Shown: positions 8,881 to 61,584 of the stretch, piece by piece
Layout: the number at the start of each line of letters is the position of its first letter
Position numbering within the stretch: the first letter of the stretch is position 1
DNA from: Burkholderiales bacterium
GTDB lineage: Bacteria; Patescibacteriota; Minisyncoccia; Phycocordibacterales; UBA9973
Reading direction: 5' to 3'
Assembly (NCBI GenBank): GCA_023701005.1
Contig: JAMPXW010000002.1
Location: forward strand, 177,167-241,166
Length of the DNA stretch: 64,000 nucleotides
Notes under the pieces: generated by a model
Seen by the model: only the letters and a program-made list of their open reading frames with translations
Told to the model about the DNA's origin: nothing
Database searches by the model: none
Program-made: the position numbers and the translations under genes

Positions 8881-9576
8881 TTATAATGAAAATATTAAAA
8901 CACCAAAAACAACAAGGATTAATAATAATATTACACGTGCTTTCTTCGTTTCTAATCTGCGCAATCTATCTATCTTTTCTGCCATCACTTTATTTGTCGT
9001 AAGCAACAATATGACAATGAGTGGCAAGACAAAAATAAAATTATAAATGATTAAATACCAAAAACCTTTCCAGAAATTCGCATAATCATGAAGCAAAGAC
9101 AACACAAAAAGATAAGGACCACCAGTACAAGGAAATTCAAACATAGCAACGAGAGCTCCTAACAATAAAAATGCTGGTATAGAACCCTTTGTCATAACTT
9201 TCGCTATAGTTGTGTGAGTACTCTCTGGCATTTTCAATTTGATGGGGAAATTTTCAAAAAATTCATTTATCAAACCGATAATACTGTAAATGAGCAATAT
9301 AGAAGCACCTATCTTCGCCATGATATTTGGTACATTAAAAAATGTTAAAGCTTTCAATGTGCCCAAGCCTATGAGTGTGTAAACTATAGCTATAGCCAAG
9401 ATATATACACCACCAGAAATCAAAACAAATCTTCTATTTTTACCTAAACTAAATAAAAAAGTAATAGTCAAAAATAACACTGAAATAGCACATGGATTGA
9501 TACTGTCAATCAAAGCAGAGAGCATTATTACGGGCAAAAAACCATGTGAACTTGTCGTTAAATATTCTGCAAACAT
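8881..9576 (-). CDS. ccdA: Cytochrome c-type biogenesis / disulfide-reductant transporter CcdA (DsbD beta-domain family)
   Basis: Multi-pass membrane protein with LIDSINPCAISVL motif (conserved Cys in TM1 of CcdA/DsbD family) and second Cys in FEFPCTGGPYL. Confidence 0.75.
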   Translation of the reverse strand: MFAEYLTTSSHGFLPVIMLSALIDSINPCAISVLFLTITFLFSLGKNRRFVLISGGVYILAIAIVYTLIGLGTLKALTFFNVPNIMAKIGASILLIYSIIGLINEFFENFPIKLKMPESTHTTIAKVMTKGSIPAFLLLGALVAMFEFPCTGGPYLFVLSLLHDYANFWKGFWYLIIYNFIFVLPLIVILLLTTNKVMAEKIDRLRRLETKKARVILLLILVVFGVLIFSL

Positions 9577-9624
9577 ATCTAAATAGTATCATGTAAAAAA
9601 CAAATATCCTAGCTTGAAAAACCC

Positions 9625-20686: not shown

Positions 20687-20701
20687 AACTTACATACAAA
20701 A

Positions 20702-20728
20702 AGCCGGACGCCTGGCGTCCGGCTTTTT
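20702..20728. terminator. Bidirectional intrinsic terminator (perfect GC hairpin GCCGGACGCC/GGCGTCCGGC flanked by A5 and T5)
   Basis: aaaaagccggacgcctggcgtccggctttttg between convergent genes. Confidence 0.75.
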
Positions 20729-20737
20729 GTATTTTAT

Positions 20738-60736: not shown

Positions 60737-60741
60737 CCCAA

Positions 60742-60769
60742 TTTCCCGGACACCAGGTGTCCGGGAAAT
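60742..60769. repeat. REP-like 27-nt palindrome copy 1 (also plausible bidirectional terminator between giant gene and RAYT gene)
   Basis: tttcccggacaccaggtgtccgggaaa, 13-1-13 perfect arms; 6 nt after giant-gene stop. Confidence 0.8.
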
Positions 60770-60777
60770 CTCGTGTG

Positions 60778-61506
60778 TTATAATATTATTTCTAAATCCA
60801 ACCAAGAAAAAATATCTTTCTTAAAATCACCAATATTCAAAAAATATTCAGGAAAACTTTTTAAATCTAAAATTTTATTTTCAGATCTTCTGTTGCCAGA
60901 ATTATCATAATAACTACTCCATCTGTAATGATCTAAATATTCCAAATTATTTTCACTATTGATACCCTCATTCTCTCTCCAACTTGAATCAATAAGCTTG
61001 AGAGGATTAAGATGAATATAAGAAAAAACATACTTAGCCTGAACGTCATTCTCAACATGAACTGCTTTAAATGGACCCTCATACAAACTTCCAGTCCTTT
61101 TATGCCTAATATTAAAATATTTAGAATAACTCATACAAAGTTTGTGCATAAATAAAGTAATATTCTTATTAAAATCCTCTATTTCTTCCCGGACACCAGG
61201 TGTCCGGGAATTTTTAGAATCAGAAAAATCCTCACGTGGAGTTAAATAAATATGAAAATGATTTGGCATTAAAACCCAGGCACCGATAGATACGAGTGTT
61301 TCTCCCCTATCAAAATCTAAAGCATTAATTTTTTTATCAACAATGTCATCACGAAAACAAATATTCTTTTTTGAATTAGAAAGATATAATAATTTTACAA
61401 AACGTTCTCTATCTCTATCATCAATAAAGATATTTTGCTTACTGTTACCTCTATTATAAACATGAAAATATTCTCCAAAAACAAGAGCCTCTTTTCTATG
61501 TGTCAT
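60778..61506 (-). CDS. REP-associated tyrosine transposase (RAYT; IS200-like Y1 HuH transposase)
   Basis: EYFHVYNRGNSKQNIF; HuH motif in WVLMPNHFHIYL; catalytic-Tyr region KYVFSYIHLNPLK; C-terminal YRWSSY. Matches the RAYT family signature order (Y-x-Y-NRG...MPNHxHLL...YIxxNP...WSS). Confidence 0.8.
   Translation of the reverse strand: MTHRKEALVFGEYFHVYNRGNSKQNIFIDDRDRERFVKLLYLSNSKKNICFRDDIVDKKINALDFDRGETLVSIGAWVLMPNHFHIYLTPREDFSDSKNSRTPGVREEIEDFNKNITLFMHKLCMSYSKYFNIRHKRTGSLYEGPFKAVHVENDVQAKYVFSYIHLNPLKLIDSSWRENEGINSENNLEYLDHYRWSSYYDNSGNRRSENKILDLKSFPEYFLNIGDFKKDIFSWLDLEIIL
61186..61210. repeat. REP-like palindrome copy 2, located in-frame inside the RAYT coding sequence (encodes ..SRTPGVRE..)
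   Basis: ttcccggacaccaggtgtccgggaa read directly within 60778..61506. Confidence 0.8.
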
Positions 61507-61557
61507 TAGTTAACTATAGCACTTTAGAAAAATAAACCCTCATTACAACACACCTCT

Positions 61558-61584
61558 TTCCCCGGACACCAGGTGTCCGGGAAG
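61558..61584. repeat. REP-like palindrome copy 3, 52 nt upstream of RAYT start
   Basis: tttccccggacaccaggtgtccgggaag (one extra C in left arm). Confidence 0.75.

Follow-up and report, generated by a model that had tools for sequence, protein, structure and literature searches.

The present study concerns a 242-codon gene and the GC-rich palindrome that accompanies it in a 64-kb stretch of DNA (contig JAMPXW010000002.1 of assembly GCA_023701005.1; hereafter the window). The gene encodes a protein resembling the REP-associated tyrosine transposases (RAYTs; REP, repetitive extragenic palindromic), and the palindrome stands on both of its sides and once more, in frame, within its coding sequence. 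Herein, we propose a REPtron-like module of the Patescibacteria, in which a vertically inherited gene for a RAYT-type HUH/Tyr nuclease-ligase acting on single-stranded DNA (ssDNA) would be joined with its cognate hairpin, an ancient in-frame copy of which would be kept matched at the DNA level; we give this explanation about an even chance of being correct. Several findings carry it. First, among 80 loci of the closest relatives, taken from species-representative genomes (where at least 564 relatives exist), 53 genes hold perfect arms of at least 8 bp at the internal site. These 53 copies represent 35 distinct core types, and every one of the 53 cores recurs in the flanks of its own gene with at most one mismatch (in both flanks in 41), as against matches in 2.3% of the comparisons with the flanks of other loci. 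Second, the stems of the 53 internal copies covary: all 12 stem pairs are altered on both sides, with 170 compensated cells compared with 44 in shuffles, and the covariation score is 0.755 compared with ~0.16 for shuffled or slid partners. Third, the centre of the palindrome falls, depending on the locus, in any of the three codon phases, and two reading frames are used for GCGGAAGC-AAG-GCTTCCGC, so that the peptide is not the conserved entity. From these results, we infer that maintenance acts on the DNA hairpin and not on the peptide.

Results

The palindrome in the window

The 21-nt core CCCGGACACCAGGTGTCCGGG has exact matches at 60745-60765, 61188-61208 and 61561-61581; in all three cases the + strand has A as the central base. 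The core was seen 0 times in 100 dinucleotide-preserving shuffles of the window, and exact and palindrome searches of the remaining ~61 kb revealed no fourth copy. A first-pass annotation of the same DNA had placed palindromes 9 nt past the stop codon of the RAYT-like gene, 52 nt before its start and, as the peptide SRTPGVRE, inside it, and these positions have been confirmed (Table 1); the inner segment counts eight codons, not the nine that had been given. The 3'-flank copy sits between the convergent stops of a giant open reading frame (ORF; 60736) and of the RAYT-like gene (60778). The 5'-flank copy carries one extra C (TCCCCGG...), on account of which its outer stem is imperfect, and is 96% identical. 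On the + strand, antisense to the gene, the internal copy is followed by TTTTT. In a window with a GC content of 34.3%, the three copies fold as ssDNA hairpins at -10.7 to -14.5 kcal/mol (z -4.6 to -6.1), with -14.5 kcal/mol (z -6.0) for the 3'-flank copy and -10.7 kcal/mol for the 5'-flank copy; the corresponding RNA folds reach -19 to -24 kcal/mol (-19.4 for the internal copy and -24 for the 3' copy).

Table 1. Coordinates of the RAYT-like gene, its palindromes and associated features in the window
Feature	Position	Strand	Description
3'-flank copy	60741..60769	no strand	29-nt perfect palindrome ATTTCCCGGACACC-A-GGTGTCCGGGAAAT; TTTCCC...GGGAAA at 60742-60768
Right arm of 42-nt inverted repeat	60743..60784	no strand	palindrome and gene-proximal tail ATCTCGTGTGTTATAAT; the tail includes the stop codon of the RAYT-like gene
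RAYT-like HUH/Y1 (IS200 superfamily) ORF	60778..61506	-	242 aa
9-nt direct repeat AAAATCCTC	61171-61179 and 61225-61233		brackets the internal palindrome; read from the sequence
Internal copy	61186..61210	no strand	25-nt perfect, TTCCCGGACACC-N-GGTGTCCGGGAA; in frame, codes S100-R-T-P-G-V-R-E107
Window-specific 10 codons P90-N99 (PREDFSDSKN)	61210..61239	-	between HuH strand and palindrome
Extended -10-like element TGCTATAGT	61513..61521	-	ends 6 nt before the ATG; no Shine-Dalgarno; from sequence
Left arm of 42-nt inverted repeat	61542..61583	no strand	tail ATTACAACACACCTCTT and palindrome
5'-flank copy	61559..61583	no strand	TCCCCGGACACCAGGTGTCCGGGAA; perfect core 61561-61581; 52 nt upstream of the ATG

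Conservation of the internal palindrome among relatives

A database search returned 3,463 relatives, the closest of which (57-69% identity) belong to Paceibacterota, Nomurabacteria, Zambryskibacteria and other Patescibacteria. In the 80 loci compared at the DNA level, a strong perfect GC-rich palindrome lies in the 71-nt target after the HuH codons in 56 genes and elsewhere in the ~550 nt of the gene in 5; when one or two imperfections are permitted, an internal hairpin is found in 61 of the 80. The ORF is unbroken through the palindrome in 81 of 81 loci, matching upstream and downstream palindromes are present in nearly all related loci, and a perfect internal palindrome is kept at one position down to relatives of ~52% identity. 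Every aligned relative has a peptide at the homologous loop position (SRTPGVRE, SPTPGVGE, SPIPGIGE, SPKSDLGE), and all of the 120 closest database proteins show loop peptides of the palindrome type. The substitutions among these peptides, such as R..R to P..G and T..V to I..I, fit compensated changes in the DNA stem. In several relatives the ORF reads into the 3' copy, repeating the loop peptide at the C-terminus. Judging from this distribution, a large clade of relatives inherited the three-copy layout from its ancestor. The in-frame copy is an innovation of the Patescibacteria clade, because distant classical RAYTs have a short loop without an internal palindrome; in Iodobacter and Skermanella, two such distant relatives, flanking REPs and a short loop were observed and an internal palindrome was absent.

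These observations bear on the origin of the internal copy. The first-pass annotation had suggested that it arose by recent self-targeting insertion or recent proliferation of REPs, and had named as the opposite case a native protein segment, with the same nine residues in all homologues, that merely resembles the flanking repeats. The three window copies are indeed identical over 21-25 nt, and a 9-nt direct repeat and ten extra codons hint at a local rearrangement. However, a copy stands at the same position family-wide (53-61 of 80 relatives, in addition to the loop peptides of all 120 proteins), in 35 sequences that follow their own flanks; the residues differ between homologues, the palindrome is read in three frames, and the covariation tracks base-pairing and not protein chemistry. 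A recent insertion and a native peptide of chance resemblance are therefore, taken together, extremely improbable.

The alignment also shows what is peculiar to the window. The SRTPGVRE segment, which had been proposed for examination as a possible insertion, is not specific to the window compared with its homologues; the segment that is unique, and is found in no other related locus, is PREDFSDSKN before the palindrome. This segment moves the palindrome centre to +308, compared with +275 to +293 in relatives. The sense strand of the 9-nt direct repeat is GAGGATTTT, which codes EDF in both EDFSDSKN and EDFNKN, and the repeat may have been left behind when DNA around the hairpin was locally duplicated. 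Together, the repeat and PREDFSDSKN suggest a local duplication or a re-positioning of the hairpin in the window lineage. Partial duplications of the left-arm peptide have been observed in a few database relatives too (SPNSSPNPGLG, TPISPIPGIGE).

Concerted change, loss and decay of the copies

Among the loci compared, 20 of the closest share a chromosomal position with common downstream genes (219 aa and 1,132 aa). In the alignment of these 20 syntenic loci, the coding sequence and the flanks are conserved and the inner part of the palindrome differs from genome to genome. In the syntenic pair L001 and L010, for example, the palindrome at five orthologous sites (after three upstream genes, within the gene and after the gene) is CCCGGACACC in one member and CCCCTAAGTC in its partner. 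Copies from the same genome agree with each other, and this extends to the additional intergenic copies at orthologous sites. Unpaired bases in the loops of flank and internal copies are identical or reverse complements in 88 of 94 comparisons, the asymmetric CTA/TAG included, and thus the copies would have been derived from one another and not merely have converged on a stem.

The palindrome type tracks the protein tree, and the distance between arms is correlated with the distance between proteins (Spearman 0.44, matched in 0 of 2,000 permutations). Neighbouring types are one compensated pair apart (CCCGGACACC, CCCCGACACC, CCCCTACACC and so on). On this comparison, the palindrome has diverged stepwise through compensated base-pair changes, in parallel to the protein.

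The internal copy has been lost in some lineages. One monophyletic clade, with flanks of the type TCCTAAGG..CCTTAGGA, lacks it and has a loop 6-8 residues shorter, and scattered further loci are also without it while gene and flanks are intact. Intermediate states have also been observed: L071 and L076 hold a remnant, TCTCATAAATCAGACAAATGG, at the position of TCCCACATGTCAGACATGTGGG in their relatives; L032 retains a fragment of a different, older palindrome type; and L080 has an internal copy in which only one of the two arms is updated. As read from these loci, the internal copy is dispensable, and it decays or gets deleted once the flanks no longer match.

Two further arguments were considered and set aside. 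The first took the lack of G-U pairs as proof of selection at the DNA level. The initial count was circular for the inner 8 pairs, because the loci had been selected for perfect Watson-Crick arms; a rerun tolerating G-T gave stems with 663 Watson-Crick pairs, 24 G-T pairs (nearly all at the outer ends) and 7 mismatches, and supports the argument weakly. The second read the palindrome as a restriction or methylation site (CCWGG/CCGG in the window palindrome), and was rejected with the finding that the palindromes of other lineages do not have this motif.

The encoded protein

The 242-aa protein had been credited with the full RAYT signature. It is indeed RAYT-like, with both the HUH and the Y1 motifs; its N-terminal motif is EYFHVYNRG and not YHVYNRG as stated, and the protein falls below the curated cut-offs. 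The HuH motif is H83-F-H85 on a predicted strand (83-89), which lines up with the HuH of 4er8; the presumed catalytic tyrosine is Y163 in SYIHLNP, which lines up with YIYINPVK of 4er8; and YRWSSY is the C-terminal motif. H83, H85 and Y163-I-H-L-N-P are invariant in the alignment of relatives. A Pfam scan of the window protein gave no match at E <= 0.01. The NCBIfam model NF047646 (REP-associated tyrosine transposase) matches residues 49-170 with 34.7 bits (E 1.4e-8; cut-off 80), and PF01797 (IS200-like Y1 transposase) gives 15.4 bits compared with a cut-off of 23; the latter model matches 30 of 34 aligned relatives at E <= 1, with a best E of 1.3e-6. A profile search against the Protein Data Bank (PDB) gave nothing at E <= 0.01, and at E <= 10 its sole match was E. 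coli TnpA-REP (4er8), which is weak (E 0.21) and is aligned exactly at the HuH and YIxxNP motifs. The same structure is the best Foldseek match in the PDB (probability 0.98, E 7e-3, template modelling score (TM) 0.31-0.42) to an AlphaFold model of moderate confidence (predicted local distance difference test (pLDDT) 62), followed by the TnpA proteins of IS608, IS200 and ISDra2.

Distant homologues (21-27% identity), found on proteobacterial and actinobacterial replicons and annotated as transposases, share the motifs QRGNNRQ, NHxH, YxxLNP and WSSY, and two of them have classical flanking REPs, one bearing GTAG. Because of the matches to NF047646 and PF01797, the invariant motifs, the alignment and fold agreement with 4er8 and these distant homologues, the protein is assigned, on predicted features, to a divergent position in the RAYT branch of the HUH/Y1 superfamily, below the thresholds of curated membership. 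The peptide encoded by the palindrome lies in residues 94-109, where pLDDT is < 50, between the HuH strand and a long helix (112-134); this result supports the earlier suggestion of a loop between the HuH and Tyr motifs that tolerates the internal copy.

Copy number and other palindromes

All three copies in the 64-kb window are at the gene. In relatives, the ~1.0 Mb of DNA flanking the genes contains 29 extra copies, a density of 0.29 per 10 kb, and many of these lie within ~1 kb of the gene; 26 of the 29 are intergenic, mostly 2-20 nt past a stop codon and upstream of true T-run terminators. One locus (L051) has an inverted doublet of its own palindrome, 1797 and 1822 nt after the RAYT start and in frame in a 603-aa ORF, which would be a second example of an intragenic REP in these genomes. 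In Iodobacter, the flanking REP carries GTAG. A metagenome scan with the exact palindrome returned 16 single sites, of which 12 belong to unrelated contigs with a GC content of 50-75% and probably represent chance hairpins; the other 4 are in AT-rich, Patescibacteria-like contigs. Overall, by sequence criteria, the palindromes show REP/RAYT behaviour at very low copy number. With regard to the label "REP" used in the first-pass annotation, the gene is flanked by its cognate palindromes, and 3 copies in 64 kb do not demonstrate the high copy number of classical REPs.

The arrangement might also be explained as an autonomous IS200-like insertion sequence (IS), in which case the 841-bp unit 60743-61583 would have identical hairpins as its ends and the internal copy would be incidental. 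Its size and single-gene content are IS200-like, the window gene lies outside the chromosomal position common to its 20 closest syntenic relatives, several genomes have two family members, and in the window the gene is enclosed by 42-nt terminal inverted repeats, the two arms of which (60743-60784 and 61542-61583) are 83% complementary. However, the paralogues within a genome are divergent and have a different palindrome each, and no near-identical copies of the gene were seen in one genome, the window holding a single copy. In addition, 20 relatives occupy one conserved locus, solo palindromes stand after other genes, and the tails beyond the palindrome are not general, as no consistent pattern of tails or of a terminal inverted repeat was observed among relatives. 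The two ends do not have distinct imperfect left-end and right-end hairpins on one strand; the same perfect palindrome stands at each, and its orientation varies. An insertion sequence of this kind is thus very unlikely in our judgement.

Several other palindromes have been observed. The only other strong palindrome in the window is a 39-nt perfect one at 20694-20732, ATACAAAAAGCCGGACGCC-T-GGCGTCCGGCTTTTTGTAT, between convergent ORFs; it has the appearance of an intrinsic terminator working in both directions, and its ssDNA fold reaches -21.7 kcal/mol (z -9.4). One compensated pair separates its core, CCGGACGCC, from the RAYT palindrome core CCGGACACC, and it may be a relative from the same repeat family or a coincidence. 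In L010, three palindrome families stand side by side at 8920-9010 and 9560-9615, namely GGGAAGGAC-A-GTCCTTCCC, TCCCCTAAGTC-N-GACTTAGGGGA and TCGGACGT-CCA-ACGTCCGA; these intergenic clusters beside the RAYT gene resemble bacterial interspersed mosaic elements (BIMEs) and lie between stop codons and true T-run terminators. In L007, a palindrome of the window type, CCCGGACACC-T-GGTGTCCGGG, is located 149 nt upstream of the RAYT gene, at the same site as in L093. The three copies of L007 itself are of the TCCCCTAAGTC type, and therefore more than one palindrome family coexists in that genome.

Expression context

A TGnTATAAT-like extended -10 element, 6-7 nt before the ATG (-15 to -7) and without a Shine-Dalgarno sequence, is found in 55 of 79 related loci; in the window, a consensus promoter scan missed this element because it has no -35 element. 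The RAYT-like mRNA is probably leaderless, as judged from this spacing, and the upstream palindrome would therefore lie outside the transcript.

This position is relevant to the possibility that the selected object is an mRNA hairpin in the coding region, acting on translational pausing, RNase processing or mRNA stability, with the flanking copies as 5' and 3' RNA structures of the same transcript. The RNA stems are very stable (see above), and the 3' copy is 0-35 nt from the stop codon in most loci, in agreement with such a role. However, given the conserved -10, the transcript would not include the upstream copy; moreover, identical copies are found in either orientation and behind unrelated genes, and an Rfam search at the hairpins gave no family. 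The stems are also almost purely Watson-Crick, a weak point since the search was biased to such pairs. We consider selection on the mRNA to have a very low probability.

A stronger alternative is that the internal hairpin is a selected cis site. Enzyme made in cis would bind both this site and the promoter copy, and so repress or roadblock transcription or limit its own activity; in some lineages the hairpin would also terminate antisense read-through. The retention of a perfect palindrome at one position to ~52% identity, despite the coding constraints, is consistent with this explanation, as is the upstream copy, which abuts the conserved -10 of the leaderless gene in many relatives (in the window, 52 nt separate its end from the ATG). 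As for termination, the internal copy with its TTTTT is the sole canonical terminator-like site on the + strand of the window facing the giant gene, and in the ACGGAAGC clade A-runs before the internal copy give antisense T-runs. Nevertheless, the antisense T-run is missing in most relatives, which have TAAC(T/C) before the stem instead, and the internal copy has been lost or has decayed at least 4-5 times with gene and flanking copies intact. A selected cis site is the main rival explanation, although we lean against it.

Two narrower roles were rejected. The internal copy as a conserved antisense terminator holds in the window and one clade and not generally, and a Shine-Dalgarno function of the 3' arm, serving an internal start at the conserved Met120, was dismissed on account of a spacing of 24-40 nt. 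The first-pass annotation had also suggested that the 3'-flank copy may provide the terminator of the giant gene; no T-run follows this copy on either strand.

Discussion

In the present study, a hairpin inside the gene of its presumed cognate enzyme has been found to change together with the hairpins outside it. Under the explanation proposed above, a REPtron-like module with a matched in-frame copy, the copies would be kept alike through an active copying process. The likeliest such process would be the enzyme's own hairpin-directed cleavage and strand transfer on ssDNA, preferentially in cis, and hairpin-templated (intrastrand) correction might help to keep the two arms complementary. In vitro, purified TnpA-REP proteins from E. 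coli, Stenotrophomonas and Marinomonas cut ssDNA next to REP hairpins with perfect stems and carry out strand transfer (PMC8266576; PMC3479197). The internal copy would be a tolerated passenger of this process in a permissive, disordered loop. The flanking copies would be putative binding sites of the enzyme and might insulate a leaderless, weakly expressed gene; the upstream copy, where it abuts the -10, could serve as an operator.

Several points weigh against this explanation. The copy number is far under that of classical REPs, and dissemination driven by the enzyme is therefore not demonstrated. The GTAG/CGTC tag is absent in the window flanks (..AATTTCCC / GGGAAATC..). The orientation of the copies relative to the gene varies among loci, so that the copies reveal no simple end-to-end transposition geometry. 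The window protein does not reach the curated thresholds of the RAYT and IS200 models, and the structural model is only moderate, both in its own confidence and in its agreement with 4ER8. Furthermore, the covariation alignment was centred on the best palindrome of each gene, which inflates the percentage of paired positions, not the diversity of pair types. Finally, the long retention of a perfect hairpin at one position fits a selected cis function equally well.

A more far-reaching possibility is that the intragenic hairpin is a functional, self-referential master copy: the enzyme would load in cis on the internal copy and the copy abutting the promoter, autoregulate, and rewrite the sister copies. 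We regard this as speculative and doubtful. If true, the specificity of the protein and its target would pass to descendants and diversify as a single unit, and the at least 35 natural protein-hairpin pairs would be snapshots of this co-diversification.

Parts of this system are already known, namely REPtrons, the co-evolution of RAYTs with REPINs and in-frame palindromic repeats in unrelated genes. In REPtrons, tnpA-REP (RAYT) genes are bordered by REPs or BIMEs, as described for E. coli TnpA-REP and for Stenotrophomonas maltophilia, where the hairpin has an 8-bp perfect stem and a 3-nt loop (PMC3333891, PMC3479197, PMC8266576). The module described here shares with them the HUH and Tyr motifs, with 4ER8 as the best fold match of the moderate model, the bordering of the gene by cognate palindromes that are GC-rich and have perfect stems with loops of 1 or 3 nt, a separate palindrome for each paralogue, vertical inheritance at a conserved locus, and extra copies that are extragenic and adjoin stop codons. 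It differs in the third copy, which lies in frame within the gene and evolves with the flanks, in the lack of the GTAG/CGTC tag, in the very low copy number, and in the protein, which is ~80 aa longer and lies under the cut-offs of the curated hidden Markov models. In the REPIN-RAYT systems of Pseudomonas and enterobacteria described by Bertels and Rainey (PMC3116915, PMC5581495, bioRxiv 10.1101/2021.07.10.451892), a single-copy, vertically inherited RAYT likewise co-evolves with its own repeat family, and divergent paralogues have separate repeat families. REPINs, however, are inverted doublets in tens to hundreds of copies, whereas here mostly single hairpins are found, a handful per region, inverted doublets are rare (e.g. 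L051), and one copy resides within the gene.

In-frame palindromic repeats in protein genes have been reported as Rickettsia palindromic elements and as intragenic GTAG/CGTC REPs (PMC3733652 and work cited there). As in those cases, a palindromic repeat is tolerated in frame and the host ORF stays intact. Those repeats, however, are insertions specific to a lineage, and their host genes are unrelated. In the present case the host gene encodes the presumed cognate enzyme itself, a large clade has kept the position, and the sequence is continually updated to that of the outside copies. For the phiX174 gene A protein with its origin and for pT181 RepC with its double-strand origin, the HUH nick site lies inside the enzyme's own gene. 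By analogy, these are the nearest conceptual precedents: a putative cognate DNA site lies within the coding sequence of the enzyme, and protein and site are inherited as one unit. They are, however, replication origins of phage or plasmid replicons with demonstrated function, whereas the gene described here is chromosomal and its site is one of at least three copies and dispensable in some lineages. IS200 of Salmonella and the IS200-IS605 elements (TnpA; PDB 2VIC, 2F4F) share the predicted Y1 HUH fold and a layout of ~0.7-0.85 kb with one gene bordered by hairpins, and the flanking hairpin of IS200 can act as a transcriptional insulator. In contrast to the present loci, the ends of such elements are distinct imperfect hairpins on one strand and their copies are near-identical within a genome.

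In the REPtron and RAYT literature searched, we found no description of a RAYT with a cognate palindrome in frame in its own gene that co-evolves with its flanks, nor any of RAYT/REP systems in Patescibacteria; subscription literature was partly covered, and this absence is not proof. The field still asks by what means REP hairpins and RAYTs remain matched to each other, and whether RAYTs really mobilise or rewrite REPs in vivo. The Patescibacteria clade offers a minimal natural system for these questions, in which each locus has three to six copies, including one within the enzyme gene, and with dozens of related genomes in which the hairpin shifts one compensated pair at a time, alongside the protein, at orthologous sites. 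It makes testable the distinction between in-place rewriting and re-insertion, as well as the use of a hairpin in the enzyme's own coding sequence as an operator. The at least 35 natural enzyme-hairpin pairs provide a route to a recognition code, which would be useful for protein-DNA conjugation with HUH tags. Moreover, the loop provides a clear example in which DNA structure, and not the protein, dictates the sequence of a protein segment, and REP/RAYT biology is extended to the reduced genomes of Patescibacteria.

Neighbouring features and origin of the DNA

The giant ORF that converges on the RAYT-like gene (38375-60736; 7,453 aa) contains ~100 repeats of the GNVGIGTT(A/S)P type, and its last 999 residues match the Pfam families Peptidase_S74 (chaperone of endosialidase), Bact_surface_Ig-like and DUF4082. 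A distance of 5 nt separates the stop codon of this ORF and the 3' palindrome. In relatives, a DnaA-box-like TTWTNCACA motif (AGTTTTCCACAG) occurs directly after the downstream palindrome, e.g. in L005-L028, 10-45 nt past the RAYT stop. The motif is present downstream in 17 of 80 loci and upstream in 11 of 80, always in + orientation, compared with a background of 0.22 per kb, and these counts owe much to shared synteny. The source metagenome-assembled genome (MAG) is named "Burkholderiales bacterium" in NCBI, yet the window has 34% GC and the close relatives of the gene all come from Patescibacteria MAGs, so the label is likely a binning or taxonomy error. Several relatives likewise carry "Saccharibacteria" or "Pseudomonadales" labels in automated records.

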